From assembly GCA_963575745.1 (NCBI GenBank), contig CAUYUJ010000002.1, positions 1,240,001 through 1,304,000 of the forward strand: a stretch of DNA of 64,000 nt. The letters are read 5' to 3'. Source of the stretch: Prorocentrum cordatum. Its lineage: Eukaryota. The notes beneath the pieces are model-generated. The model had not been told where the DNA came from. It made no database searches and was given only the letters and a program-made list of their open reading frames with translations. Below, piece by piece: positions 8,101 through 51,943 of the stretch (position 1 is its first letter; each line of letters starts with the position of its first letter). The position numbers and the translations under genes were made by a program.

Positions 8101-11080
8101 CGGTGCCCCAGAACTCCCCGAGCTCCTTGGACCACTGGTCGGTGACACTAGAGCGGACCTTGGCCCACGTCTTGGGGATTGCGGGGAGCATGCCCAGGAT
8201 TCTCTCTCCACCTGCGGGCTTGGGGGCCATGGCCCCAATGGTGGCGCAGAGCTGCTGAGGCCACAGTCCGTTGGCCTCCACCTGGTTGTAGATCTCGGCG
8301 AGCTCCTGGATCCCCTTCCCGGGGGGCCTCTGGATGTCGATAGGGCCGATGTTGTCGACTCCTCTCGCCTTCTTCGGATTGGCGGTGCCCACTATGGCCT
8401 GTATATGCTGCGGCTCGATCAGCGGGAGGGGGTCCTCCTTCGCGAGCCGCATGGCCTTCTCGTATGCGCTGATGATCTGCTTGGCGTTGTAGCTGTCGGA
8501 CGCCCAGATGGAGCGCCAAGTGTCGGCAGAGTGGTTCATGAGCGTGGATGGGTCGCCCACCGTTCTCTGAAGCTGCTTGTCCTCCAGGCGCGGCGCCTTG
8601 GGGTCGGTGACCATGCGGTGCAGCTTGCCTGGTGAGTCCTTCCACGCCTGCTTCGCCCAGTCGAGATGCCGTCTTCGCGCTCTGCCTGCAGCTCTCGCCA
8701 TAGCTTTGTGGGTCCACTCCATGGTGGTGGCGCTGATGTGGTGCAAGTCAGCCACGTCGCAGTACTCGAGGGTGACGAGCTGGGTCTCCCACTCTTCGAT
8801 CTCCTGCGGGTCGGTTCTCCTGCCGAAGTGCTCCTTGGAGAACTCAGGGTTCTCTAGGTCGTCCAGCTTTTTCATGGCTGTCTTGTGGATGTGCTGGCGG
8901 GCTGCGGGATCCTTGCCGTTGGCGACCAGCGCGGTGTACCTCGCCGCGAGGGTGCTGAGGCGCTGCCACCGTGTAGCCTCGGGGCCCTTGAGGTACGCTC
9001 TGCCAGGCGACGCCTTCATCGTCTGCCTGGTGGTCCTGTACCCCTCTGCCCTGCCCCGGCACCTGGCCCCGTCCTCGTCGGGGGCCGCGTGCGTCTCCAG
9101 GACGGCGAGCTCCAGGGTCGCGATCCACTGCGCGTACTTCGAGTTGATGTTCTCCGCGAGGTTCGGCGCGTGGTTGTGGAAGATGTGTCCTCTGCCCTCC
9201 TTGGCGCCGACCTTTGCGCCATCGAACTTCGGGAAGTTGCTGACCTCGTCGGCGGCTGCGTCCCAGTTCTGCTGGGGGATGACGAAGGGGGTGGGGTCCT
9301 CCTTGGCCGTCTCGCGGTTGATGTAGAGGGCGTCGAACTCGTCGCGCAAGTGCTCTGGTAGCCTTTTCCGTCCTGGTTCGCAACGCCTCCGCGCGAGCCT
9401 TGGACCTTTTGCTGCTCGGGTCCCCGACCTTCTTGGGTCTGGCTCGTGCGGGGAGGGCTTTGGGAACCTTTATAGCTTTGTACTGCCACGGCTCGACGGT
9501 GCCCACCGTGACCTGGATGCCGCAGTGGGTCTTCCAGGGGACGTCGTAGATGGCCTCGATCCCGACGTGCGTGGCGATGTCCGCTAGTACGATCGCGTAC
9601 TCGTACACGGAAACCGAGCCCCTGTCGCACGTCGCCTCGCAGCTCGGGTCGGTGGGGATGGCGCCGTTCCATCGCGTGAGCCACGGCTTGTTGTCCCACC
9701 AGTGCGGCCCGTAGTTCCAGTCGGCCAGGATGATCCACGGGTCCACGAGATGTCCACGAAGGTGGAGATGGAGACCAGGATGTCCCTGTTCGCGCCTTGG
9801 TCCCGTAGGCCAGGGCGCAGGTGCGACGCCAGGACGACTATGTTGCCGCTCTTGGAGTGGAGGACTGTCGGCGTGAAGCCCACGAACGGCTGCCTCTTGT
9901 GGCGCTTGGCGTAGTAGTCCCTGTAGCCCTCGAACGCGGTCGCCGCCGCGTCACTCGCCGCCGTGGGTCCCCTTGTCCGATTTGTTGGTGGCCACCGCGG
10001 GTGTGGCCGAGCTTGCCACTCTGCTCCGTGATGCCGTTCGCGTCGACGTGCGTCTCCGCCAGCGCTGCGAGGTGGTACTTGAAGCCTGCGTTGCGACAGA
10101 AGTTGGCGGCCTGCGGGCCCCACGCCGTGTTATGTTGCCGAACAGGATCTGCGCTGCCTGCTCGGGCTTAGGGGCGGGTGCACCTGCCGTGGGGAGCCCG
10201 CTGGCGCGGTTCCCAGGCCCCCATCGGCCGCTGCAGCCGCTTGCGGCTACCCCAGCGACGGTGGGGCTCCTGCCGCTGCCGCTGGCGCCATGGTGGCGCC
10301 CGTGCCCCAGCCCTTAGCTGCGTGGGCCATCTCCCCGGCCCTGGTGGAAGTGGCGATGAGCTCGGCGGCGGCCTTGCGGTCGTCCGCGGAGGGCTCGTCG
10401 GCGGCAGGGGCGGCTGCTGCGGGTCCATGGGCCCCTCCAGGCTGGCGTGGCCCAGCAGGAGGGGCGGCAGAGCCCGCTGGCGCGCCAGGTTGTACGTGTC
10501 CTCCAGGCGCGGCCGCTGGCTGCTGTTCCTCTGGCGAAGCGGGAGCAGGCTCAGGGTGAGGTTGCTGAGCAGCTGGTTCCTCCCCACGCGGCTTCTTCCG
10601 CTTCGCAGGGTTGGTGGTGGACCCCTTGGCTTGGCGCAAGAGTTCGCGTACTTGTTCTTGGCCATTGTTGAGCTCGGCCAGGCGCTGGTCGAGCTCTTGC
10701 TTCCACTGCTCCATCTGGGCGCGGGTGCCCTCGTCGTAGATGGAGAGGTCGTCCCACATAGAGCTGTCGACCTTGAAGGCTTCCTGAGGTCCCACTGGTG
10801 GTGCTCCGCGTGCAGCTCCAGCAAGCTTGGCGCTGTGGTCCGCTTGCGCCTTGGCGCATGCGTTCTGTGCCTGGACGAGGTCCAGGGCAGCTTGCTCCTG
10901 TTTGGCCACGGCGTCGGCTTGGCGGCCTCGACGTCGTCGACCGACTGCTTGAACTTCTTCTCCATGTCTGTGAGGACTGACAGCGCCGACTGGAGCACCT
11001 GCTCTGCTGTGCGGGCAGGCTGCGGCTTGTCGGGCTGCTGGAGGGCGTCCTTGAGGTTGCCGGCGATCTTCCAGCCACTT
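5200..11080 (-). mobile_element. Degenerate non-LTR retrotransposon A: ORF1 remnant + APE + RT + Cys/His knuckle + RNase H
   Basis: Frameshifted pieces: coiled-coil ORF1 (10170-11080); APE (NTAWGPQA..ETH, ILADWN); RT (PKPAGGERILG, NVEKFYD, SIVAGS, TFVDD at ~7725); CPRCGGADETLMHRVWLC; RNase H (LFGDGSG, QIVPRAEL, NPDLW, WVPSH, GNATAD). The 3' end runs into (TCC)n. Confidence 0.9.
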
Positions 11081-13365
11081 CTGTGACGGCCGAGCGAAAT
11101 CCACCCGGCACTCGTCAGGGGCACTAGGATCCCCCGTGGGGGCCCCGCCTTGGAGGTGGAGACTGGTGCGCTTATCAAGTCCGTCTATGCGCAGAATGTG
11201 GGCGGCGCGCCTGTCGGCGAGCAGATCGGCATCCACCGAAGGAAGATGCTCATGCAACCCCTGATCCATGCGGCTATGCGCGCAACGCCCAGGCGCTTTC
11301 TTCATGTCGTCAAAGACCGCCACGTGCCACGCGCGAGTCGCGCGAAGACGCTCGGACAACACATGCGCTCCGAGAGTGGCGTTCTCTCTCCTGCGATGGG
11401 GCATGCAACCGTGGCCAAACTCGTCTGGTGCCCCGTGGAAAAAGGGCAGAGGCCGCGCAAAAGCCGCGCGCCCCCGTCTGGCTCGGGGTCTGCCAGCCTC
11501 TCGAGAACCTCGCGCACGTCGGACCCCCCCCCGCGCGCCCGCCAGCGCGCGGCGAGACTCCCCAAGCCAGCAGAGATGTGCTCCACATCGGGGGGATCGG
11601 GTTTGGCGCCGAGGCTTCGAAAGCATGAGCCAAATCTAGCCGAGCAGGGACCGGGGGGGGTCGCGCGACGGCGAGTCGAACGGCGCAGCGCCTACGAGGC
11701 TCTGCGCAGATCCCGCCACCCCCTAGCCTCCGCCGAGCCCCGAGCAGTCATGCCTCGCGGGGCCAGCGAGGCCCGCTCCTGCAAAAAACTGTCGAGGCTG
11801 ACCTGGGTCGTCTGCAGTGCGCCTTGGTTGCCGGGGAGGTCCAGGGAGCGCGCGAGTTCAACGGCCGAGGAATGGCGACGGCGCACGGACGAATAATCGC
11901 GACGCTTCGGCCCCAGGCCCGAGCCCGACAGGCGGCGACAGAAATGCTGGACCTTCGACAGATCACGGCGCCTCCATGCCTCATGCACGCCCTCAGTCCA
12001 CGCGCGACGGAGCGATCTCGTCCAGCGCCGCACCTCCCACTTGATGCGATTCGCGAGGTCGCGGATCTGCGTGTCGAAGTATGCGCGCGACGTGTGCAGC
12101 GCCCGGAGCCGAGCTCGACGCCGAAGAAGGTGGCGAACAGCAGCACGATGCTCCGCTTGGGCAGCACCCAGAGCACGCCGCGCACGACCGAAGGACTTTT
12201 TGGCGATCGGCACGAGGATGGAAACCAGCGTGCCGTAACCACCGCCAGTGCGGTCGGCGTCGAAGAGCCATGAAGGGCGGGGGCGCGCGACTTCATGGCG
12301 GCGTTCAGCTCAGGCAGGGAATCCAATCGAAAACCAAGCGTCTGAAGGGCCAGCCCGATAAAACCAAAGTTCCACGCCATTGCCGCACAGCCGTTCTGCA
12401 AACTGGGCACCCCCGCCTCGAGCTCGAGAAGGATGGAAAAGTGGTCCCGCAGGGAGCCTTTGCTCGGAAAGAGCTGGAGCGAACGTGCGGCCTTGGTCAT
12501 GGCGACGACCTTCTGAATGCGCTTCAGGGCGCCCAGCGGGACCACAAAGTGGTCGATCCACGATACGCCCTTCTCGCGCCATAGAAGGACGGGGCCAACT
12601 TGTGGAAGGTCGTAACACAACCAAGGAAGTGCCTATGCATCAGCTCGCGCAGGGACCGAACCGCGTACCCAATGCGGCCCTGGACGAAAGGGGCCAACGC
12701 ACTGAAACGCACCCGACGTGTCGTCCACAGCGAACGAGTCATTCAAATCGGCGAAAATGACAGGCGTCGGCCTCGCGGGCGCAGCGTCCAGTTGCGCACC
12801 CAGCCACTTTATGAGCACATCGACCGTGCGCCCCCACGAGGCCATAGTCCCACGAGGGCCAGGAGGAGGGAAGTACAAGACCACGATCGTGACATCCACC
12901 GAGCCCGATGTGACGCGAACAAGGCCCGCGCGGCCCGCAGCAGCTGCGGGCCCAGGAACCACGCGATGAACCTTCGTCGCTAGGTCCCGCCTTCGCAAGC
13001 CGATGCTGACGCCCGCAAAACGATTGTTGAAGGGGCCGCGGTTGTAGCCGAAGTGAAAGTCTTCATGGTCCCCACTGAGCTGGCACCGCACAGCCTCGAA
13101 TGGCTGCGCGCGGAGCCTCGTGCCGACGAGGGCGTGGACGGGGTAGTTGCGGCCGTACGTGGCTATCTCGAGCAAACGGCTCGGTTGAACAAGGCTGCAC
13201 ACATTGTAGTCGCAGATGTTGCATCGCATGGGCCCTGGCGAAGTCAGGCGTCTGCAGCCATCGGCGTAGAGCCCCGCTCAGACCTGTATGTGTCGACTGT
13301 TCCGCCTTCAGCGGGGGCTGCCGAAAAAGGGCCCCCCAGGAGGCGTCTCGACACAGAAAGGGGCT
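11080..13365 (-). mobile_element. Degenerate 5' half of non-LTR family B (APE + RT up to domain 4)
   Basis: YNVCSL...VLYFPP...FADLND, WIDHFVVP, CRRLSGSGLGPKRRDY, HGCMPHRRRE, GGAPTGDP are colinear with the element at 28202-33936. Confidence 0.85.
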
Positions 13366-13838
13366 GGAGGAGGAGGAGGAGGAGGAGGAGGAGGAGGAGG
13401 AGGAGGAGGAGGAGGAGGAGGAGGAGGAGGAGGAGGGCGACGAGGGGACGGACGAAGAAAGGCGGTTCACCGCCCCCAAAAGTGGATGCCTCCACTCTGG
13501 CCTCTGAGCGATGCCCTGCATAAGCCAGGAGGCCAGAGTCGAGGAATCGACCAGGGCTGGACCATTCAGTAAACGATGAAGGTCAATATGTTCCCTTAGT
13601 ATATTTAATATAAAGGTCAATGATTATCCTCGGTTGCCGGGCATTCATCCCCAGAGAAGCTTGCTGGAAATGAGGGCGCGTTCCGCAGGCGTTTTCCGAG
13701 ACGTTCCAGTACGTGGGCTGCAGCGCTTCCTGGGCTCGCGCGCAACTCCTAGGCAGCTCTTGGGCAGCGTTTCCTGATCCAGGCGAGGACGACGATCGCG
13801 ATTGGGGGGGGCGTCCCCGCCGCCGCCGCCGCGGGGGC

Positions 13839-26726: not shown

Positions 26727-27856
26727 CTCCCCGGCGGCCCCGGGGGCGCGCTGCTCGAGCGCGGCGCGCTCGGGGGGCGCGCTCACGGGCGGGGTGCTGT
26801 CGTGTTCGTCCTGCCCCTCCTCTCGTCTTCGCTGCTCCGCCTCAGCTGCGAGACACCTCGGCGGAGCGGACACGGCTCGCGGAATCGCCCAAAACACCCG
26901 CTGAGGTCGGCCCCTGCCAGGGGGGTGGGCCCACGCCTCCGGCCAGCCTCAGCGCCCCGTCAGCGTTGGCCCCAACATGAGAAAGGGAGGGCCCCCCCCC
27001 GTCCTCGGAGGGGGGGAAACTGCGCTCCCGGCGGCGGAACATGTACGATCCCCTTCGGCATTGTGACCCCCTGCCAGCGTGTTAGCTTCTGCTGCCTGCG
27101 ATGATCCGCGTGACGTCGAAAAACGCGGCTCCGGCGATCTTGGGCCGCTGAAAACTTCTCGATGCACAAACGATCGATCCGAGCCCCGCTCGAGAATTGG
27201 GGGTGCCAAAACCGTGTGGTGACAGACCCGGCGGTGACCTCGAAATCCGCAAAGACCTCACCGCGCGGTCAGTCACCACACGGTCTCGCGACCCTGGAGG
27301 TTCCAAGTCGCCCGAGACACCCTCGGAGAACGACCCGGGTCCCAAGACCGCGCGGTGACCCCGGATCCCCATCGACTCACCACACGTTGTGGTGGACTAA
27401 CTCCCACAATCTGGGCGAGAACGGGCGAGTATGATACCCCCTGCCGGCTCCCGCTGGGGGTTCTAGAGCGAGCGCCTCGGCCGATCCACGCAACCGCAAC
27501 CTTCCCCACGATCTGGGCGCGAACGGGCGAGCGGAATCCCCCTTGTGGCAGCTCCCCCGGCGGGGTGTTAAAAGTTTCTCGACGCGAATCCTGAATCCCC
27601 GAATCCTCACCCCGTCGGGGGCCCCGCTCGAGAACCCACCCCCGCCCAACCGCGATGGCCCAGAGGCCCACGGGCGGCCCGAGGGCCCAGCACCCGAGCC
27701 AACGACCCTCACTCCCCCTGCTCTGGCCTCCCTCCCTCCCCCTACCTGTCGGCTCCTCTTCCTCCTCCTCCTCCTCCACCTCTTCCTGGTCCTCCTCGTC
27801 CTCCTCGTCCTCCCCGTCCTCCTCCTCCTCCTCCTCCTCCTCCTCCTCCTCCTCCA

Positions 27857-27888
<32 letters not shown>

Positions 27889-27988
27889 NNNNNNNNNNNN
27901 NNNNNNNNNNNNNNNNNNNNNNNNNNNNNNNNNNNNNNNNNNNNNNNNNNNNNNNNNNNNNNNNNNNNNNNNNNNNNNNNNNNNNNNN
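27889..27988. other. Assembly gap (100 N)
   Basis: N run next to a TCC array. Confidence 1.
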
Positions 27989-28482
27989 GATGACGCCACA
28001 AAAGGAACGCTGAGGCGAGCGCGGCGAGCGCGCGATTTCGGTCCGGCGGGACGGGCGCCGGAAGAGGGGGGCAGGAGGGAGGAGGAGACAGGAGGCAGAG
28101 GAAGAGGAGGAGGCAGGAGGAAGGAGGGAGGAGGGAACGGGGAGGAGGGGAGGAGGCGGGAGGAAGAAAGAGGAGGAGAAGGGAACATGAGGAGGAGGAG
28201 GATCAATCAATCAATCAACCATTGCGAGCCTCTGTCACTCAGCAGTCCTGGTGACCTCTGCAGGCTCTTGGATGCGAACTATCGCCTACCAGCGGCCGAC
28301 GCTGGAAGGATGGCCCTCTCTGGCCGAAGCGGGACCGCTGCAAGGGGAACGCCCAGCGGCCCGCACGCGGCACCATCCTTCGTGAAAGGAACAAGCACGG
28401 GCGGACAGAGCAGGGGAAGGAGGGAGGACAAGTGAGCAAGGTCGCAACGCGTCTCACTTCTCTCTTGCAATATGGAAAACCC

Positions 28483-28908
28483 CGAGCCTGGGCGGCCCGC
28501 ACTGCCGCGGCCCGCACTGCCGCGGCCCGCAGCGGACTGGTAAAGAAATGCCCCGCCAGATTTTGATTCCCGTTGCTCTGTGTCTACAGGCGACCCCAAT
28601 GCCAGAGTCACTCTGCTGGCGGCAGGGGATTGGGGTGGAGATATCTACTAGCGGCACGATTGCTCTGATTCGGCACTGTCTCTACATTGACTTCTCGAGC
28701 CTGGCCGGCCCGCACTGCTGCGGCCCGCACTGCCGCGGCCCGCAGCGGACTGGTAAAGAAATGCCCCGCCAGATTTTGATTCCCGTTGCTCTGTGTCTAC
28801 AGGCGACCCCAATGCCAGAGTCACTCTGCTGGCGGCATGGGATTGGGGTGGAGATATCTACTATCGGCACGATTGCTCTGATTCGGCACTGTCTCTACAT
28901 TGACTTCT
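28483..28908. repeat. Near-perfect tandem duplication, 2 x 213 bp
   Basis: CGAGCCTGG...TGACTTCT at 28483-28695 and 28696-28908. Confidence 0.95.
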
Positions 28909-31900
28909 ATTCTGCGCACCTGCTCACTACGCTGCTGGAACTCTTCAAATGACATGATGGCGGGGGGATCTGCACTGCCAACCTGATGCAACAAGACACT
29001 GCGACTGCCGTTAAAATACCTGAGGATGGGGTGGTGGACGCGGGCCTGCAGGGCCTGTAATTGTATGCCCGTGAGGCGGCCTTCCCTATACATCTCTGCC
29101 ATACGCTCAGATCCGTTCACTGCTTCAAGACGCAACGGCCTCAGAACCCCTCCCCGTCCTGGTCGCTGTCTACCTCGATGGTCTGCCTGTCGCTCTCGAT
29201 CCCCATGCGCTTGAGCAGCCTCTCCGCCTCTCTCTCCAGCGCCCCCTTGGGGGGTCCGCCCGCTTTGTACTCCCCGCCCTGCTTGAGGATTGCCATGCAG
29301 AAGGCCTGGTGGAGCGGGATCGTGTTGGTCTGGTCGGAGGTGTTCCTCACTCCATTGACCTGGGAGTTGGGGCTCATCATGAACTGCAGCTTGAACCTGG
29401 TCGGCTTGTCGTCCTTCTTGCGGTCGTACCAGCAGCCCTTGATGCGCAGGAACCTGATCTGCTCCTGCAGCTGGATCAGGCCCTCCTCCTTGCTGAGGCT
29501 CGTGATCACCCCCCAGTAGGTCTTGAACGCCTTGATCGACGGCTCGTCCAAATTCGTCATCTGGCAGAAGTGCTTCAGGAGAGCCAGGAAGACGTGCGGC
29601 CACGGGGGGCCGTTGCCGTGCTGCTTGCCCTTCTTCTTGCAGTCCTGGGCGCAGGCCTTGCCCGCCTGCTGCATGATGCCGATCAGCGGGGCGCCCGCGG
29701 GGAGCAGAAAGCACGTGAAGCAGGCGCCTGTGAGGTCGGCGAGCTCCCTGGAGTTCGTGATACTGAGCTTCGTGAGGATGGCGAGCAGCGCCTTGAAGTT
29801 GCCCATCTTGAGCCCGTCGCGCTTGACCTGCTCGGCCAGCCGCCCCTTCTTGTTCTCCTGGGCGTCCGAGGTGTCGTCCAGCTCCTTGCGCTTGTTGGCC
29901 GTGCCGATGATCATCCAGTCTGGCGCTGCCGCCATCTCCGAGCCTCCTGCTGCCTCTTGCTCGTTGGGCCTCGCCGCTGCTGCCGCGCCCTCTCCTGGCA
30001 TCGTCGAGCGCTGGGAGGTGGAGAAAATGCGTACGGATGTGGGCTCGCAGCGGAGCCCCAGCAAGTATTTGAGCCTTACACAATGGGCACTCATCAGTGT
30101 TGTCCTGGCCTGGATGTTTGAAGGTCGTACTTCTTTGTGTGACGCATATACCCGTTTCGAAGGAGTCGATGAGGTGCTTATAGACCGAGTTACGGCTCTC
30201 GAAAACGCTCTCGCAGACAAAACATACATTAGAAGTAACTGCCAGACCAAGGATAGATCTGAACTCATGCCCCCTGCTGAGGTGAACCAATAACTGCCTG
30301 GAGGTATGGAAAGAACGAGTACATCCTGGTACTGAACATGGTAACATATCTCCTGCTGCTTGTGGCGGGTCGGGTCGTGATTCCTGAGGCTGAGGATGAG
30401 CATATCCAGGAGGGGGGATAGCTACACTTAACCACTAAGCTCGCAACTTCTTTGGGTCAAACTGGGTGAACCATTCGACTAAGCTCTCGTCCTGGAATAT
30501 TCTCATTGGACTGCTATCAAATTCTTGTACATGTTCATATTCGTCATCTCCTAAGTCAGCCAGGGAGTTAATATCTGATATTACTCTACGAGCCCAGGGG
30601 CAAGCATCTTCTGTAAGACGCTCGTCCTGTCCAACGATCTGCACTCCTCTCTGCGACTCGATTTGCATGGTGCCAAACAAAGCTGCCCATTCTGCCAGGT
30701 GACGATCAGGTTGTTGAACCCAGCGCTGATACCACTTGATACGCCGTGCGCGCAGTTCGATCTCAAGTGGTGCCATCTTCCAGTACCTACAAACCTCTTC
30801 GTTACTGATCGAAACCTTATGCCCGTTCTGCTCCTTAGTGGCCAGCCCTCGCATAGCACGTCTAGCATACATATTTACTCTGCTCTGCAATCGCTGTAGT
30901 TGAGCAGGCGTTGGGAGGAAAGCCTCGACGCCTGATAACGCAGACCCTAGGACACGACATAGGAAGACAGCACGTCGTTCAACATAAGGGACTCGTGCCT
31001 GGTACCAGAATCTCCCCATACTGTGATAACCAACATCAATGGCCCTAAGCCTATTTTCCAGTTCAGAAGAGAAAGCTCCATCACCTCTAACGATACTACC
31101 CAGGTACTTAGCAGAATCTTTGGGTTGTCCAGCTAACCTAATATTGCCAGTCCGTATTTGTTTTCTGCAGTTCTGAGCTTGATCCCCAAAAAGTGCAAGC
31201 ACTGTTTCATTTTTTGTTGGGTTAAGTTGATAGTTGTGTTCAGTCAGTCGTCGCGATAACAAATCATCGTACTGCAAGGACTGCCTGCTGACCTCCTGCG
31301 CCAAGTCTGTCGTCTGGTCCGCAATAAGTAACTTCTTGGCGGCATCATCTACATATGAATGAAATGATAGGTCCATAACCATCTCCTGATCATCATCTGC
31401 TGGGAGCCTGACCGTGCACCACGTAGCTGTTTCGTCCTGGGAGTTATGATGATCCTGCTGTGCTCGCGCGAAGACCCCTCCTATGTCTCGTGTGAATACC
31501 TTAACTACCCAGGGATCTCCTTGTAGCGCTCCAACCGTAGGCTTGGCGAAAAAAAACCCATCCAGCCCCGAGAAACACACCGTGGATAACTGCAGCCTCT
31601 GGACCCCAAACCTAGCCTCCCCCTCCTTCATGATGCTCTGGTTGGCCTCCAGGATAGCCTCACGAGAACTGCTACCGAACGCGTTCGTGATGTCCTTATG
31701 CTCCGTGACATGCCGTATCCCTAGCCTCCTAAGCCTCCATCCAACTGACTGCTGGATCATGATGGCCGTCTCGCGGCGCCTCCTGGGAACACAACCGTGG
31801 GCGAACTCGGGTTCCTGGGTGATCTGCACTGGGTCCAGGCTGGTGGCGATGAAGGCTTTGCCAAAGGGGCACAAAACGTGTATGACCCTCTTCCAATTAG

Positions 31901-33826
31901 TGGCCACCCCCATCGACAAGCTCCAGACTGCTGGTGGCTGACTACTTCGATATATCTTATGTACAAATATCACCAGGAATCGCCTTAGAGCACGCAGATC
32001 AAGGTCTGGAGCCTGATAACCTACACCTCGGAACCTCCTCGACGTACGCCGGTACGGGTGGAACAGCATCCAGAACACTTCTATAGGAAGGGACCAGGGT
32101 GGCGACGTTCTTCGTTTGGCAGCCCTGCGCAGGTATTGTCCTATCAGCTTCAATTTTTGTCGAGCCCATTCCAGGCCCTCCTGGGTCCAGGGGGAAGTAA
32201 ACTGCTGAGCCTCCAATCCGTGATCAGGGTGATAAACGTAGTCATCGATCATCTGGGGCCAGTCGACTATCTCTGCCTGCATCCCTCCCTCCCCTGAAGA
32301 CAGCTGGAAGCGAGCGTAGAGGTCCGCCGCCGTCGGCATCAGCTCGGTGGCCCGACGGTAGTTCCTCTTCCGAGGTCCCGTTCCTCGTCCCGACAGCAGC
32401 CGACACAACCTCGCGACCTCTCCCTGCCGATTCTGAGACCGTGCTGCGAGCAAGTCCGAGGTGAGGTCCCGACGCCAGAGGACAACGTAACGTCTGCGTA
32501 GCCTCCTCAGCTCCCTGCTCCTCCTCCTGAGCTCCTCCTTGATGTTCTGCTGCTGCTCCTCGTCCTGCTGCTGCCCCAACTGCTCCCTCATGTCCCTTCT
32601 CTGTTGCAGCAATTGTTTGACCTCCTGGGACCGTTCGCGATAACCTGGAGAATACTCTGGAGTAGCAGTAAAAAACCTGGATGCTTCCTGGTTAAGGATG
32701 TTGACAAAGTAACCCCATTCTGCATTCGTAGTCTGTTCGTCTCTCTGAAGAGTCTCGATGTCATGTTCAGCAGCAAGAAGCCGTGATTCAACTGCCTGTA
32801 AAAATTCCGCTCGCTGGGCCCCAGTCCGAAGTGCATCCCCTAACGCTTCCTTGTTCCACTTGTGCGTGGTGGGGACAAGGCCGAGCCTCTGGTGAGTGGG
32901 GATCTGGTTCGGGAGGCAGAGAACATCAGCTAACGAGTACGATATTCTGACATGTACTGGGATATGATCTCGTGGGTCGACAGTGTGGCTAGTTGTAACC
33001 TTCGTGCCATTCTTCGTAGTGGGCCAGCGGCCGTAACATTAGGTAGGCAACATTGCGGTAAGCACACAAAGTCGAGTTGTGAGCTGTTGCGTGCGTTCCC
33101 ATAGAAGGTTGGTCCAGCTCCTTTGTGGGTGTTGACAGCAACTAGATCAAGGTCCTGTAACATAGCCAGCACAACGTCAGCTGAGTATTTTTGTTTAACA
33201 GGCGTAACTGCCGTCCCGATGGCGGGGTGACGTACTGGAAGCCATTCATCACTGCCTGACCGACGTTGTAGTCCAAAGCCTGAGTTAACATCCGCACATA
33301 ATACTGGAACACATCTGTGGGTGCCCCATATTGGTAACTGCCTGGCCCACTGGATTAGCAAGTCACATGTCTTGTAGTAGGTTGTGATCTGCTTGGAGTA
33401 ATTGGGGACGGGCGGAAAGTATAAGCAGACGACCGCAACGTCATAGCTTCGCGCTCTTGCACGCAATGCCACTCCACGCCCAGCTAACGAGGGAGGAGCA
33501 CACCAGGTATGAGTTACTGACCTGCGGGAAATCCTGGGACCTAACAGGATGCCACAACCTGCAGACTTATTTGTAAGTGGTCCCCTCTGCCACCCTGCCT
33601 CCAGCATCCACCTATCTCCCGCTCTCCTCCAACCCACCGCCTCCCCATGCCTCTTGCTGCCCGTGCCAGTCAACCCGATGAAATCCATGTTGGGGGCCTG
33701 GGCGGCGATATCGGTGAGCCGATCGGAGGTGGAGGCCGACTGGGGGTTATACTGCAAGAAAGAGAGGCTGTTCATACCGTTGATGGCCGTCCAGCCGCTG
33801 AGGAACAGTAGGAAGCGGGAGGCCAT
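28821..33826 (-). pseudogene. pol of family B: APE endonuclease + RT + C2H2-like zinc fingers
   Basis: APE (QYNPQS, GCGIL, LYFPP, ADVNS, QLDFV, RDHIPV); RT (DITNAF, GALQGDP, SYVDD, KYLG); CSVPGC..HLSRGH, CFVC..KHL, CPLC..HIRTH. Only two lesions seen: a frameshift near 32990 and an in-frame TAG at 30435. Confidence 0.9.
29141..30001 (-). CDS. Downstream ORF of family B retroelement (286 aa, function unknown, possibly gag/ORF1-like)
   Basis: Intact ATG-to-TGA ORF with strong GC3 codon bias, unlike pol; helical and basic; apparent homologous remnant at 48093-48620. Confidence 0.8.
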   Translation of the reverse strand: MPGEGAAAAARPNEQEAAGGSEMAAAPDWMIIGTANKRKELDDTSDAQENKKGRLAEQVKRDGLKMGNFKALLAILTKLSITNSRELADLTGACFTCFLLPAGAPLIGIMQQAGKACAQDCKKKGKQHGNGPPWPHVFLALLKHFCQMTNLDEPSIKAFKTYWGVITSLSKEEGLIQLQEQIRFLRIKGCWYDRKKDDKPTRFKLQFMMSPNSQVNGVRNTSDQTNTIPLHQAFCMAILKQGGEYKAGGPPKGALEREAERLLKRMGIESDRQTIEVDSDQDGEGF

Positions 33827-34171
33827 TAGAAGAAAACCAAGGTGGGAGAAGAATGAACCATTCTAAGCGTCTTAGGTGTGGTAGGCTTCATTGTTCAATG
33901 TGGAAGTGAGGGAAGCGCCTGTGCCGAGACGCTTAGGAGGAGGAGGAGGAGGAGGAGGAGGAGGAGGAGGAGAGGAGGAAGAAGAGGAGGAAGATCGGCC
34001 CACCGAGGGTGCGGAGACGCGGCAGCTCGACCCAGAACGGCCCTGGGATGACTGAGCCCCTTGGCTGGGCCGATGACTACGCCTCCTGGGACGAGTCTGC
34101 AGGGGCCAAGGCTTGGCCGAAGCAGGAGGGAGCGGGATGCGAAGGGCACACCGAGGGGAGCAAGACGCTGC

Positions 34172-34220: not shown

Positions 34221-35164
34221 CTAGCGGGGGGGGGGGGGCAACGACGACTGGACGATCGACACCCGCAGAGGTGCAGCGCCCATCCCCATTGGCTTGGCTT
34301 TGTTCCTGCTGGCCGACTCCACCGCCAGGTGGGGATATTTGCTGTTCCCTCTGGGTTTCGCAGGACCTGCCTCCACCTGGAGGGTGGGCCAGGGGGGGGG
34401 CTGAGATACCATGGCCCAGTGGAGATGGGGATCGGTTCGACGATGGGGAAGAAGAGGACTACAGGAGGGAAAGGGCAAAGGATTATCCAGATGAGGGCGA
34501 CGTGGAAGGTGAGCGGGAGGAGGAGCGGAGGTCCGCGCGGATTTACTAGCTCGGCGCTGGACTGCACAGGGGGGCGCCAGGGGCGGCGCTGGAGGAGCCG
34601 TCAAGGGGGCCCAACGCCGATCCAGAAGATCCGCGCAGATCTCCGAACGTGTATGTCCATATGGGTGACGAAAAGACGCGGGTCTTACGCAAGTTGGCAC
34701 AGCGACCTTACGCCGCGGCTTACGCGGCCGCCAGCGCGGCAAGCCTCATTGGAGTCGAGTGCGCTTACGCGCGACTTTACGCGGGCAGCTTACGCGCAAT
34801 GTCGGCGAAAACGACCCCGTTTCCATCCTCCGCTAATATGTCGGCCTTCCCCATCCGTCTCCTACAAATTATCCTGCCTGCCTCCGCGGCCGCGCCTCCT
34901 TCTCCCTCCAGCTGCTCATGTGCAACTCGCTAGACCCATCTGCCTCGAATTGCCACGACCACAGACATGCCGTGAAAACCGCGACCACGATGTGCTACGA
35001 GGCCCTAGGTGGCGTCCGAACCAAGACACCAGCTCGGATGTCCTGGACGTGCGTAACAAGCCAGGCTTCGCGTAGCATCGGAGGAACACCGCAGCGAAGA
35101 GACAGAAGGCACACACAGACGTCAGCAGACCGCGAGAACAAGGCCCCTCGCCTCCACCTCGGCA

Positions 35165-35196
<32 letters not shown>

Positions 35197-35224
35197 CTCC
35201 TCCACCTCCTCCTCCTAGCATTGG

Positions 35225-41269
<6,045 letters not shown>

Positions 41270-46131: not shown

Positions 46132-46164
<33 letters not shown>

Positions 46165-46191
46165 ACAACATCAGCAGCATCATCATCATCA

Positions 46192-48620
46192 GGCTGCTTC
46201 TCATGGGCGACTCCGACGCGGCCACGAAGTTCAGGATGGCGTTCGAGCGACCCACAGTGGAGTGGAGACAGGCGCTGTGCCAGACCTCTTCAGTGCATGA
46301 GCTGATCGCGGGATGCCCCATCACGCAGGCGTCCTGCGACCTGGGTGTCCGAAAATACGCGGACGACTTGACTTGCGCGCACGTTGCTCCTGATGCGTGC
46401 AGTGCGGCGTTGAAGGTCGGGACCTCGGACAGGCACCTTGACGAGACTCCAGGTCGGAGTGGACTGACACAGAGCCGTGGAACAGAACGATCAGCCCTTG
46501 CTTCGAGGGCCGAGGTTCCCAGAGGTCCACGAGAGCTCTATACTACCATTGGGTTCCGATTGCAGGTGAGGTTCAGGCCACGGCAGTCTTCTTGGGAGCT
46601 CGCACGCAGACGTCGGGGGAAAAAAGCGAGGAGGTACGTGCCAGGTGCGCAGCCATGTGCGTCGGGTGGCGCGGCGTGGGAAAGGTTTGGAGGATCTGCC
46701 CGTTCGTCGGTCGTAAGAGGTTGGTCTTCCAGATTGGAGATCTCGGCGCAGCTGTTTCTGGATTGGAGGCGATAGTGCTCACGCGGGACCAGGAAGCTCA
46801 ACTCCGCTGCCGTACGACGTACGAGTGCTCTGTGCCAGGGCATTGCTATATACCGACAGCTGAACGACGAGGGAAAGGAAGAGCGGTGGAAGGTCACGAC
46901 CACATGTGCGGAAGCGGCCTGGCAGAAAGTTCGAGTCGTCCCTCCGAGTATCGAACTCGCCGTTCGACGACTACGACATTACCGAGCTCACGCTCGCCGC
47001 CCCCATCCATCAGCACGTTCAAGAGCTCGCGGTCGTCTGCGGGAGGGTTGCGTCTGAGAATGCGGTGCCGCAACGGTTCTCTTGGACCCCAGCGTGTCCC
47101 TCTGAGGTCACGCCGAAGGCTCGCATCAACCCGCGGCCCCTGCAGTTCAATAATGGTCTGCTTGACTTGGGCAAGCTCGAGGGGGGGCTCCGATTTCCTG
47201 GACGCCGTATGTTGCGACTTCCTGAGGTTTGTCATGGTTCCCGAGTTGCGTGCGAAATTCCGGATGTTCAATATGAAGCGGCTCAGAAAGCGTTGGCTCC
47301 AGGCCCCGACGGTGACCCCCGCCAGGCAGCATGAGGACCAGGAGTGCTTCGAGGCTGGGGATATGTGCACTTTACCCAACGGCGCTGGTCTGGAAGTTGG
47401 CAAGAAGTTTCGCACGGTGCACGCGCCGCGCGAGGAGGGGAGCACGGACAACTCGACGCGTTCACCAAGCTCACGGTGACAACCCAGTGCCCGTCGTGCG
47501 CATCCACATCTGCATGTCGTCGTACAGCCATGAACCACAACACCGCAGCACACAGGTATGAGAGGGGCTACAGTCATCGGCCTGACCTAAGGAACGATAA
47601 ATAAGGAACGAAGCCCCTTTTTTATCCCAAGGAATAACGCATAAGGAACGATACATAACAGATAACGCATAAGGAACTGTAAATAACGCATGCAAGCCTA
47701 AGGAACGACCGAGCCCCTTTTGAAAAGTAAGTGTTCCTTATTCAAGCCGCTCACTGTATTAGACGAACGCGTTCCACTACTCGCATATTGCAGTAACTAC
47801 TCGCAAATGGCCTGATCCGCCGCAGGGGATCTACGATGCATTACATCAAAGCAGACATGTTTTTTTCCCACACGTTTGCGAATAGGAATTTTGCGAGTAG
47901 TGGAACGCGCTCGGTGAGTTATCGCTAATGCATCGGCACTCAACTGTCCTGTGGTACATCCGCAGCAGTTTGCTTGCCGAGAGACGGAGTGCGCAGTGGA
48001 CATCGCGGACCTTCTTTCACTACAGCAGCGCATCGCAGAGTCCCATCTGCCGTCTCCTCGGCCGCATGTCGCGGCTGCAGGCGCTCCCAGCGATGGTGCA
48101 GGCAGACGACGAGCCATCACGCAAGAAGGTCGAGCGGGGCACTAAATGAGGAGCATCTTCATCGGGCAGTGTGGCAAAAGACGGACAGAAGGAACAATGA
48201 CCCCAAGATGGTGGGCACAACCGAGTTAGGCGGCGATCTGATGGAGGCAGGCCAAGCAGAAGTACTTCCCAGTCATGGTGGCGCTCATCCTCAACATAGC
48301 GCTGAGACAGATGCAGATCGAATCAATCGAGTTGACGACCTTCCTGATGTCGTCGGGCATGCCGGCGGCGGTGAAGACGACGGCGCGCGCCAAGTTGTGG
48401 ACCCGCACAGCCGAGCCGCACAGGCCGATTCTACCTAAGGCCAATGCAGAGCAGAAGACCAAGGAGATGGGCACCGTCTCGGCTGCGTTCTACGCCGGCG
48501 TGTTCGAGGGTCTGGCTGCGGAGGGCAGCGCGGTGGGGCGAGCCAACCAGCAGCAGCTCGAAGAGCTGAACGAGCGGCAGAACGACCTCGCGATCTACGA
48601 GGTGGGCGAGGTCGTTCGAG
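46192..48620 (+). mobile_element. Old, 5'-truncated family B-like element: RT 3' half + ZnF + downstream ORF remnant
   Basis: LLMGDS, KYADDL, AVSGLEA, LTVTTQCPSC, ACRETEC...SHLP, then ATG at 48093 and VMVALILNIALRQMQIESIELTTFLM. Confidence 0.75.
47571..47756. mobile_element. Tc1/mariner-type MITE with TA target duplication
   Basis: TA|CAGTCATCGGCCTGACCTAAGGAAC ... GTTCCTTATTCAAGCCGCTCACTG|TA; internal TAAGGAACG repeats. Confidence 0.8.
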
Positions 48621-48911
48621 GATGGACCGGACCCCCTTTTAGTAAAATGTGGTTTAGTGTGCAAATGACCTCGGGCCCAAACCTGGCGGGCGCAAGCCTG
48701 GAAAATGGCGGCCGCGGCGCCCTCTCGAGAACCGACAACGGACAAATCACTAATCGACGTGTCAGGATGGGGGTTCTGTCCACCCCCGGATCGTGCCCCT
48801 AGCCGAGAGATCGGCCTGTCACGAGGAGGGCACAATGAAGCTCGTGCTGCCCTTCAGCTCGCGTCTCGACAATGGCTCCAGTGCGAGCGGCTCTCATCAT
48901 GGTTGAGGGCA

Positions 48912-49272: not shown

Positions 49273-50516
49273 CTGTAGCCTCCCCAAAACTGTCAAAAAC
49301 TGTCAAGACATGCTCCCAAAAACGTCCCCTGACTAATTTTTGACTATTTTTGAATATTCCCCCTGTAGAAGGACGTGCCCGACTTAACCCTACTGCAACC
49401 CCTCTCGGGCTTCCTTCCTCCGATCCCTCTCTCGCCTGGTCTCCGCCAGGCATAAGGGATCAGGTGCAGTCTCCTCACTCGGTGCATCCGAGGCTTTGCC
49501 ACTCACCGCCCCCGCTTCTAGAGGAGAAGAGGAGTCGGTCCGACTCTAGAGGCCAGGAAGTGGAGGGTGGGCCCCGACTTTCAGATATCGAGGGAGCGGG
49601 CTCCGCGAATCGCAGGAGTCGCCGGCAAGCAGCTGGCATGCCGATCCTTGTTCCCCCGACTGCCCTCCTCTTGTCGAGACGTGCCTCTCCTTGCCTCCCC
49701 CCTAAAGCAACCAGAGCTGCCACCTTTTTAAGTTTCGAAGGGCCAAGTGGTGGGAGGAGAGCCCCGAGCCCGTAGGAACACGAACGCTGGCCCAGCTGTG
49801 AGCAGGAGCTGCTGGCTTTGGGACGGCGTGAAGTCCCACCCCACCCCTTCTTCTTCCCCTTGTCCCGAGCCTCTCCTCACCTCTTTAGAGGGCAGAACAT
49901 CCACCCCGATAATAACCACCCCGACACGCGAAGTCGTTTAGTAAACGCACCCAATCAAGGAATCAAACAGGGCAGGGCTGTCTTGTAAACGCCCAGGGCC
50001 GTTTAGTAAACGCCAATTGTCCGGTCAGCGTGGTTTTTTCCTCTCTTGACTCTTCCCCCCTCGGAAGCCAATCAGAGCTGCTCAATCAGGATGTTTCGAT
50101 GGTCCAGGTGGAAGGTCGGGCGCCCCGCATCCGTCGCGCGACGAGTCCTGGCAATGCGGACCACACGCGTGCGAAGAATTCTGGAACTTCGGCGGGCACC
50201 AACTCGATTCACGGTCCCGCGGAGCCCACTATTCGAGTAGTTATTCACGGGAGGCCGTGGGCAGGTGGAGGGTGGCGCCCCACGGCCCTCTCAAGAATTT
50301 GTTCTGCACTGTGTAATTGGGCCGACAGAGGTGCCGCTCTGCGTCTTTTGGGTGCACCACTGCATCGACAGAGCTCGGCTGTGTCGTGAGTCGCGGCGAT
50401 GCTGGGCCACACATCGCAGACTGACGCTCGGGTGTAGCCCGATCCTAAGGGGCCCTCGCTGGGTGAGGAACTCTGCTGGCCCCCGATGAGATCTGATCTA
50501 ACCTGATCAGCATCAC

Positions 50517-50570
<54 letters not shown>

Positions 50571-51943
50571 TATTATCATCATCATCATCATTATCATCAT
50601 CACTATCATCATCATCATCAGCATCATCATCATCATCATCACGAGCATGATAATGATCATCGTCATGATCACCATCGACAGCATCAGCATCAGCATCATC
50701 AGCATCATCATCGGCATCATCATCGTCAGTATCAGCATCATCACCATCGTCAAGATCATCATCATCATCATCAGCATCATCGTCGTCATCATCGGTATTA
50801 TCATCATAATCAGCATCGGCAGCATCAGCTTCCTCATCATCAGCAGCATCATCATCGGCATCATAAGCATCATCGACATACTCATCATAATAATCAGCGT
50901 CACCATCATCGCCACCCCCACCAGCAGTACCATCACAATCACCATCACCAACGTCGCCGTCATCATCATAATCGTTCGCATCGTCACCATCACCAGAACC
51001 ATCATCATCATAAACATCATCATAACCACCATCATCATCAGCATCATCATAATCATCATGATCATCATCATCATCACCATCACCATCATCATCAGTATCA
51101 CCATCTTCCTCGTCATCATCAGCCGCATCCTCATCCTCATCAACCTCGTCCAAACCCCATCAGCATCAATGTCGCATCATCGTCAGCATAATCACCATCA
51201 CCATCATCGTCATCATAATCACCAACATCATCATGATAACAATCATTACCAGCATCCGCGCCATCATCAGCATTACCACCATCATTATCATCAGCATCCT
51301 CATCAACATCATCATCATCATCATCAGCATCAGCGTCGTCAACATCATTATCAGCATCATGAGCATCAACATCAACATCAGCATCATCATTACCATCATC
51401 ATCATCAGCAGCAACATCATCATCACCATCATCAGCAGCCTCATCATGATCGTCGTCGACGTCGTCCCCATTATCCTCATGCTTCTCATCATCCTCATCA
51501 TGGCTCTCCCAAGCCTGCCTGCTGCAAACACGAGGTGTCTCTGGTGACGGCCTCCCCTATCCCGTCGAATAGTGGCCACCAAAAAAAAGGGCTGGCACGG
51601 TGGCGGCACTTGCCGCAGGCAGCTGGATAGTACCAACACGTCCTCCTGCGTCCCCTCCCCCTCCCATCGGGCGTTGGCGGAACTGGGTTTAGTGAACCTG
51701 GTTTCGTGATTTGTACTGGGGGAGGCCCCCCCCCACCCTGTTCCACTAACCGGAACTGCCGTCACCCGAAAAACACCAGCTACGGCAGACCTGGTTTAGA
51801 GATTCTGGCCAAGTCAAGGGCCCCGGTGCCCTACCACTAACCCAGTCCCCTTACATGGGGTCCTGGCTATACCCGACTGCCAGAGAGCCCCCCGAAGCAG
51901 CCAGCGGGGCGCCGGCCCGCTGGCCCGCGGGGGCGGTTCCAGC

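Follow-up and report, generated by a model that had tools for sequence, protein, structure and literature searches.

A conserved gene nested in the putative pol frame of a LINE-like element of Prorocentrum cordatum

The stretch of DNA analysed here (the window, 64,000 nucleotides) comprises positions 1,240,001–1,304,000 of contig CAUYUJ010000002.1 in the Prorocentrum cordatum assembly GCA_963575745.1. On its minus strand, from 33936 to 28202, it carries a unit with the appearance of a long interspersed nuclear element (LINE), which is embedded in a (CCT)n microsatellite. The unit contains a pol reading frame with an endonuclease-like part of the apurinic/apyrimidinic endonuclease (APE) type, a reverse transcriptase (RT)-like part and three Cys/His fingers, together with a second open reading frame (ORF), termed ORF X, that overlaps pol in a different frame. 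The features are given below in the direction of the element strand.

33935..33991, 5′ flanking microsatellite, (AGG)n on the plus strand and thus (CCT)n on the element strand (TRF, 19.3 copies)
33827..33934, minus strand, leader from the array to the pol ATG, 108 nt
32930..33826, minus strand, endonuclease-like N-terminal part of pol in frame A, a 298-residue ORF shortened by a 1-nt deletion
32986..32987, minus strand, site of the 1-nt deletion, private to the window copy, that moves pol out of frame A into frame B
30438..32984, minus strand, linker and RT-like part of pol in frame B, with motif blocks
31697–31677, 31526–31509 and 31358–31341, minus strand, RT motif blocks KDITNAF, LQGDP and YVDD
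31226–31206 and 31112–31095, minus strand, RT motif blocks LNPTKNE and KYLGS
30435..30437, minus strand, in-frame TAG at the boundary of RT and fingers, private to the window copy
30012..30347, minus strand, three Cys/His fingers of pol, ending ...HFLHLP (Pfam zf-C2H2_4, E = 1.7e-4, under its cut-off)
29144..30011, minus strand, pol-frame linker rich in Gly, Arg, Ala, Gln and Pro (isoelectric point 10.9), open and overlapped by ORF X
29141..30001, minus strand, ORF X, 286 residues, in the +1 frame relative to pol
29004..29135, minus strand, conserved C-terminal tail of pol, directly after the ORF X stop
28821..28823, minus strand, pol-frame stop codon
28483..28908, 213-bp tandem duplication (2.0 copies, 98% matches) over the pol end and the 3′ untranslated region (UTR)
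28203..28218, minus strand, (TTGA)4, the 3′ end of the element
28073..28202, 3′ flank, imperfect (AGG)n, oriented like the array at the 5′ end

The leader measures only 108 nt (pol ATG at 33826), so that an ORF1 cannot fit upstream; the same had been concluded in a first-pass annotation made from the sequence alone, which placed the APE ORF ∼110 bp from the TCC array. That annotation had also described a 286-residue ORF at 30001 in another frame, and this ORF is found at 30001–29141, +1 to the fingers. Its further proposals, that pol ends at ...HFLHLP and that the extra ORF lies downstream of pol in an inverted gene order, have to be revised. The pol frame is open across the whole of ORF X to 28821, passing 18 nt beyond the X stop into a tail of 40 codons, and X, in the +1 frame, lies entirely within a pol that continues to this conserved tail.

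In the window copy the pol frame is broken twice, between APE and RT and between RT and fingers. At site 30437 two of the other runs, X1 (72.8 of 72.8 depth) and X3, read AAG instead of TAG, and runs X2 and X4 have one extra base at 32986; both breaks are thus private to the window copy. Frame B of the window, without editing, is open from 32984, where it immediately reads a ..DH.. motif and then WNKEAL, leading into RT, of which the ORF at 32591–30435 (minus strand) covers 718 residues. The intact pol of the family appears to be a single ORF of ∼1,668 codons, which would encode in order the endonuclease, the RT, the three Cys/His fingers, a disordered linker of ∼290 residues rich in glycine and arginine, and a short conserved tail. 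Contig depth of the other runs is 26–116 within the element and 0.7 at 33916–34100, and the contigs of three runs begin at 28189, near the 3′ end of the element.

ORF X belongs to a sizeable protein family. A phmmer search with ORF X of 1.84 billion representatives gave 221 proteins with E ≤ 1e-3, 56 with E ≤ 1e-10 and one with E ≤ 1e-30, the members being mostly 200–280 residues long; P0001 (ENA, 297 residues) shares 38% identity over 90% of ORF X. The window ORF and P0001 were aligned with 85 phmmer matches, picked by eye for length from the 150 listed, to give 87 rows. Two prolines (P133 and P251) are invariant in this alignment, and the motifs GPP..H and G..P.G.LER are conserved. Among the 151 listed proteins of the family, 40 have a Met with P.W within eight residues, followed by KRK; this conserved motif (M..AP.W..KRK) indicates that the true start of X is likely to be the ATG at 29935, which would give a protein of ∼264 residues. 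At least one long match, P0063, has the look of a false positive due to low complexity; P0036, also a phmmer match, is a 960-residue model with X in mid-protein, and a dedicated search for longer, fused relatives of X found none. P0002, a P. cordatum gene model, fuses residues 1–38 of an X copy (identity 92%) to a protein kinase domain; this model is probably an annotation chimera that took in a piece of the element.

The AlphaFold2 model of ORF X calculated from the 87-row alignment has a pLDDT of 82.1 and a predicted TM-score (pTM) of 0.72, with core residues 63–265 mostly above 90 in pLDDT. It consists of a disordered N-terminus, a 32-residue helix and a mixed α/β domain, and the protein is basic (isoelectric point 8.7–9.1). 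Comparison of this model with the PDB by Foldseek (best E = 0.14), with 48,161 chains by VIA-align (best Z = 5.8 over 55 residues) and with the viral models of BFVD (best E = 0.043) gave no identification. Pfam assigned no family to the 87 X members, with two single stray hits only, and no signature of the ORF1p-type domains (coiled coil/RRM/C-terminal domain, esterase, PHD, zinc knuckle) was found in X. The sole PDB profile match, to a BMC-H shell protein (50 residues, E = 0.0014), was unsupported by three fold searches and is put down to chance. ORF X is a conserved, real protein gene, with a confidently predicted fold that matches nothing known.

The neighbourhood of X is similar wherever it can be seen. 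A contig scan with a three-row X alignment returned one metagenome locus, L001, and none in genome contigs or viral contigs. L001 is a 1,532-bp metagenome contig that starts in a third finger homologous to that of the window, and its ORF X (41% identity to the window X, 102/247) has its ATG 14 nt past this finger in the +1 frame, as in the window, with an X-frame stop 9 nt ahead of the ATG. Downstream of X it continues for ∼545 nt and has simple repeats at the contig end, in the manner of a LINE 3′ end. Among the 151 proteins compared, fingers precede X in P0151 (E = 2e-9), P0121 (E = 9e-7) and P0027, and a piece of RT thumb precedes it in P0007 (12/16 identical, E = 0.003); the remaining 147 are X-only ORFs that show no context. 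Contigs of all four runs span the junction between fingers and X. Fingers also precede an X-like ORF in a degenerate second copy on the plus strand of the window:

46149..48799, plus strand, copy 2, divergent, 5′-truncated and frameshifted, with the C-terminal half of RT, fingers and an X-like ORF

Copy 2 begins inside RT, and its RT thumb gives a BLASTP match with E = 4e-10. The finger profile locates fingers 1–2 at 47335–47601 (E = 6e-6) and finger 3 at 47918–48142 (E = 0.031, ending ...SHLP), and the ATG at 48093 is +1 relative to the frame of finger 3. Of the 1088 ORFs in the window, the copy-2 ORF at 48242–48799 is the top non-self hit of the 87-sequence X profile, although its E value of 0.066 is marginal; a profile of the pol tail finds no tail in this copy. 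The first-pass annotation had described a plus-strand copy with the same order as the full element. The order, the cgATG at 48093 and the ...SHLP ending are all present, but the copy is degenerate and its match to X marginal, and the pairwise similarity claimed for a helical segment of the two downstream ORFs is not significant (BLASTP E = 0.27). Between fingers 1–2 and finger 3 (47600–47900) lie ∼300 nt that are richer in A+T and filled with stops; this stretch may have been inserted or may be introner-like.

Fingers thus precede ORF X wherever upstream sequence is visible, and X belongs to the element. This agrees with the earlier proposal that the extra ORF is conserved and part of the element, for which L001, copy 2, P0151, P0121 and P0027 now provide the upstream fingers. 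Of the checks on X that had been suggested with it, the finger–X linkage recurs wherever context can be seen, while the Foldseek comparison identified no relative.

The nesting of X leaves marks in both frames. Across X the pol frame has no stop in 287 codons of the window or in 265 codons of L001, and the third frame has ten and five, respectively. When the synonymous codons of the L001 X were shuffled 2000 times, an open pol frame resulted in 0.05% of the shuffles. The G+C content at third codon positions (GC3) is 92% in X, compared with 58% in RT, 57% in APE and 50% in the fingers, which bears out the stronger GC3 bias of X that had been remarked upon in the first-pass annotation. T occupies the third codon position in 2% (window) and 8% (L001) of X codons, versus 22% in RT. 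Because the third codon position of X is the first position of pol, where all stops begin, the avoidance of T keeps pol free of stops; it also accounts for the GC3 bias of X, which need not mark a foreign or separately evolving gene. Within the overlap, window and L001 are 41% identical in the X frame, 28% in the pol frame (67/238) and likewise 28% in the third frame. Purifying selection preserves the sequence of X; of the pol frame across it, only the freedom from stops is preserved.

Conservation of the pol frame resumes 18 nt (window) or 11 nt (L001) past the X stop. In the tail, 21 of 40 residues are identical between window and L001, compared with 3/39 and 5/39 in the other two frames, which contain stops. 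Nucleotide identity at codon positions 1, 2 and 3 of the tail is 23, 25 and 10 of 40, the last being the level expected by chance, and 16 of the 21 shared residues are encoded by different codons, with at least two base differences in four cases (the swaps include CGT/AGG, CGC/AGG, TTA/CTT and AGT/TCC). Chance-level third positions and codon swaps indicate that the tail is protein-coding rather than an RNA element. It has no conserved ATG of its own. The tail ends in a motif ..IL.Y.(D/N)GS (window 29004–29021, L001 1053–1070), which resembles the first strand of RNase H; the pol frame closes after a further 8 codons in L001 and 60 codons in the window, so that no RNase H domain follows, and the motif may be an RNase H remnant. 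As judged from these alignments, a nested overlapping gene with both frames under coding constraint is present in two lineages.

Taken as a whole, the data are best explained by an APE-type LINE with one pol ORF that contains X, nested in the +1 frame, in its linker part; we assign this reading a probability of about two in three. The window unit itself is probably a slightly damaged copy of a dinoflagellate LINE of this type, the nearest named protein being from Prorocentrum cordatum. The architecture is well supported; the route of expression and the function of X are guesses.

Several observations weigh against this reading and are considered here together with the alternatives on which they bear. 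In P0027, P0121 and P0151 the fingers and X stand in one continuous frame, and X could therefore be, or once have been, a domain of pol. On that view, a programmed +1 frameshift just after the fingers would give access to X as the C-terminal domain of pol, with linker and tail as the unshifted product and no separate X protein. The X frame of the window is in addition open for 139 codons upstream of 30001 (30003–30419, with an ATG at 30403), across the fingers; zero stops are found there in 2.6% of shuffles, and the feature is not conserved in L001. Such a frameshift is nevertheless rather unlikely. The X-frame stop just ahead of the ATG in L001 leaves few codons for a shift, the N-terminal Met with its nearby P.W recurs in the 40 of 151 listed proteins noted above, and no slippery site is seen by eye. 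Moreover, the spacers of the in-frame proteins resemble the Gly/Arg/Asp-rich pol frame and then switch, as would be produced by an indel in a dead copy.

A second set of points concerns the linker, which is not conserved in the pol frame beyond the level of the control frame. In the window, an open pol frame resulted in 10.9% of 2000 shuffles, which is not unusual when taken alone. These values would suit a pol that ends functionally at the fingers, with the open frame as a by-product of extreme GC3 and the tail produced in another way, for example by a −1 shift at the X stop that lengthens X, or serving as a conserved RNA element. We consider this quite unlikely, since the open frame of L001 arises in just 0.05% of shuffles, the coding pattern of the tail retains Arg, Leu and Ser despite two or three base differences in their codons, and no conserved ATG is available for the tail on its own.

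The DNA-level context of X, thirdly, comes from two lineages (window and L001) and the degenerate copy 2. X could conceivably be a host gene or a captured fragment beside LINE debris, or a passenger of 3′ transduction: its codon usage is host-like (GC3 92%), composition changes in a step at ∼30020, and most X members in the databases are stand-alone proteins of ∼250 residues. This origin is very unlikely, given that the finger-then-X junction recurs in the +1 frame in L001, at 41% X identity, and in copy 2, and is present in three database proteins as well, that the 3′ UTR of L001 ends in simple repeats as in a LINE, and that contigs of the four runs bridge the junction.

The remaining objections concern the identity of the element as a LINE. 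The blocks D..NAF, QGDP, YVDD, LN..K and KYLG were read by eye at 31697–31095 in canonical order and spacing, and the endonuclease motifs ...YN.., ..YFPP, ..DVN.. and ..LDF.. were recognized in the same way, with ..DH.. appearing once the 1-nt deletion is allowed for (frame B). The catalytic Glu of the endonuclease is not evident by eye. The RT and endonuclease pieces of all window copies have no match in Pfam (E ≤ 10), NCBIfam or PADLOC, a PDB sequence search gave none for endonuclease or RT (phmmer, E ≤ 10 for RT), and a word-based homologue search with RT returned no relatives. AlphaFold2 without an alignment produced an unusable model of the RT core (pLDDT 33.6).

Other evidence is in favour of a mobile element of this class. 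Between-copy differences include 22 in RT among the 40 listed (104 further ones exist), and 19 of these 22 are synonymous; the RT region is under purifying selection. Several variant contigs per site occur inside one run, which corresponds to a multi-copy state. The element also shares 28% identity with another APE–RT element of the window, at 13211–11126 (E = 6e-16). Apart from the flanking microsatellite, the element has neither long terminal repeats (LTRs) nor terminal inverted repeats, and with the same microsatellite on both flanks a target-site duplication would be indistinguishable from the array. Another LINE, at 9950–5250 on the minus strand, has an APE, canonical-looking RT blocks and, by eye, an RNase H-like end, and gives nothing with Pfam or PADLOC either; because such an ordinary-looking LINE escapes Pfam, profile libraries appear to be blind to dinoflagellate LINEs. 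The assignment as a LINE is thus based on motif order, multi-copy state, 5′ truncation and the simple-repeat 3′ end, with no recognition by profile or solved structure. A mistaken APE–RT interpretation, with the element falling outside the non-LTR retrotransposons, as the missing profile and structure matches and the failed RT model might suggest, is highly improbable in view of the ordered RT blocks, the excess of synonymous differences, the multiple copies with a 5′-truncated relative, the absence of terminal repeats, the (TTGA)4 end and the canonical-looking LINE that Pfam equally misses.

On the reading of X as a gene nested in pol, pol would be translated straight through the overlap, which would serve as a disordered linker, to reach the tail. 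Translation of X would start on its own, the most plausible template being a shorter RNA with the same 3′ terminus as the element. The X-frame stop of L001 and the conserved N-terminal motif both argue that X is initiated independently, and since its internal AUG lies ∼3.9 kb from the RNA start, ribosomes must either use a shorter mRNA or enter internally. Dinoflagellate mRNAs are all trans-spliced, and the shorter X mRNA might most readily arise by spliced-leader (SL) trans-splicing to an internal acceptor. The DinoSL relic motif, as given in the part of PMC12014239 consulted, was not found near X in a scan of the window, the one match of 13/15 (212–226) being at chance level. As to function, X might supply in trans the stoichiometric RNA-binding or ribonucleoprotein (RNP) role of ORF1p and be made in excess. 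This guess derives from three features of X (it is basic, begins with a disordered segment and has a long helix), from the missing ORF1 and from the long-term co-inheritance of X with pol; against it, no observation ties X to RNA binding. A complex prediction of the X core with the pol tail gave no support for an interaction. Tentatively, a lineage of dinoflagellate LINEs may be envisaged in which ORF1 has been replaced by the overprinted X, expressed in excess from an SL trans-spliced subgenomic RNA, acting in trans as an RNP component or chaperone, and kept by most 5′-truncated copies.

LINEs are taught as ORF1 followed by ORF2, or as ORF2 alone, and single-ORF APE-type LINEs (e.g. the RTE clade) have no conventional ORF1. 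The window element is similar to such single-ORF LINEs in that an endonuclease-like part and RT share one ORF behind a short leader, with no ORF1 and no LTRs, 5′-truncated copies and a short simple-repeat 3′ end. It differs from them in the three fingers, the long linker, the conserved tail and the nested second gene. In LINEs of the L1, I, Jockey and CR1 types, ORF1p is encoded 5′ of pol. Like ORF1p, X is a second, basic protein that combines a disordered N-terminus with a long helix and is possibly needed in excess over pol; unlike ORF1p, it is encoded 3′ and nested, and no domain signature of the ORF1p types was found in it.

In its coding layout the element is like the hepadnaviruses, whose polymerase has a tolerant ‘spacer’ where the overlap falls. 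The envelope ORF of the P/S pair is, according to the part of PMC5604429 consulted, fully nested in the replicase ORF, so that there as here a reverse-transcriptase gene contains the whole ORF of a different protein in another frame. The hepadnavirus case involves a virus and an envelope gene, whereas that of the window concerns a non-LTR retrotransposon and a predicted soluble protein of unmatched fold; in the element the nested X looks older and constrained, and the pol linker looks unconstrained. Retroelements with an extra conserved ORF beside gag and pol, to which no function has been assigned, are described in the part of PMC5408684 consulted; those are separate ORF3s of LTR elements, unlike X, which is nested in a LINE pol. 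No published LINE with a nested or 3′ ORF was found in the full-text literature, a search that left Repbase and subscription journals outside its range, so that a prior description is possible; to this extent the first-pass statement that the layout was not recognized as described stands. The parts of PMC11453091, PMC12014239 and PMC10666404 examined contain neither a LINE of that kind nor an account of dinoflagellate LINE anatomy.

If the proposal is true, dual coding would be seen for the first time in a LINE, as would the use of SL trans-splicing for a retrotransposon subgenomic mRNA, and cellular retrotransposons would join the compact viruses, of which long dual coding has until now been characteristic. 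In genomes of several gigabases compaction cannot explain such an overlap. The reading would also allow a family of at least ∼200 clusters of ‘dark’ marine proteins to be named and placed in a genomic context, and offer a handle on LINE expression and massive retroposition in dinoflagellates. It carries a warning as well that gene models in such genomes absorb pieces of elements, as exemplified by P0002.

A third related element lies on the minus strand of the window:

10802..13277 (10250..13277 at its widest), minus strand, third related element, limited to APE and the first half of RT

Its endonuclease (13211–12471) is 28.5% identical to that of the window element over 256 residues (E = 6e-16), and the homology reaches a QGDP-like block, beyond which the sequence is unrelated and rich in Ala, Pro and Gln, with no fingers and no ORF X. 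The third element begins ∼100 nt past a (TCC)n array at ∼13300–13500. The shared (CCT)n/(TCC)n flanks may reflect microsatellite-targeted integration, or the array may be part of the 5′ ends of the elements; copy 2, unlike the full element with its (CCT)n, is preceded by an (ATC)-type array. LINEs that target microsatellites include Dong, Waldo, Mino and Kibi. The window element resembles these in having the same (CCT)n on both flanks and a 28%-identical relative at ∼100 nt from (TCC)n; the comparison concerns one full copy and one 5′ end only, in a genome rich in such arrays.

The 213-bp duplication at 28483–28908 spans the last pol codons and contains short GC-rich sub-repeats of 15 nt. Just past the 3′ flank of the element, a 100-N assembly gap (27889–27988) lies within the microsatellite. 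Below the gap the repeat on the plus strand is (CTC)n (27753–27888), the complement of the (AGG)n at 28073–28202. Rfam has no match anywhere in the window. Kilobases of low-complexity, strand-asymmetric arrays with a GC skew of down to −0.7 occupy 35000–41000 and 50200–51700.

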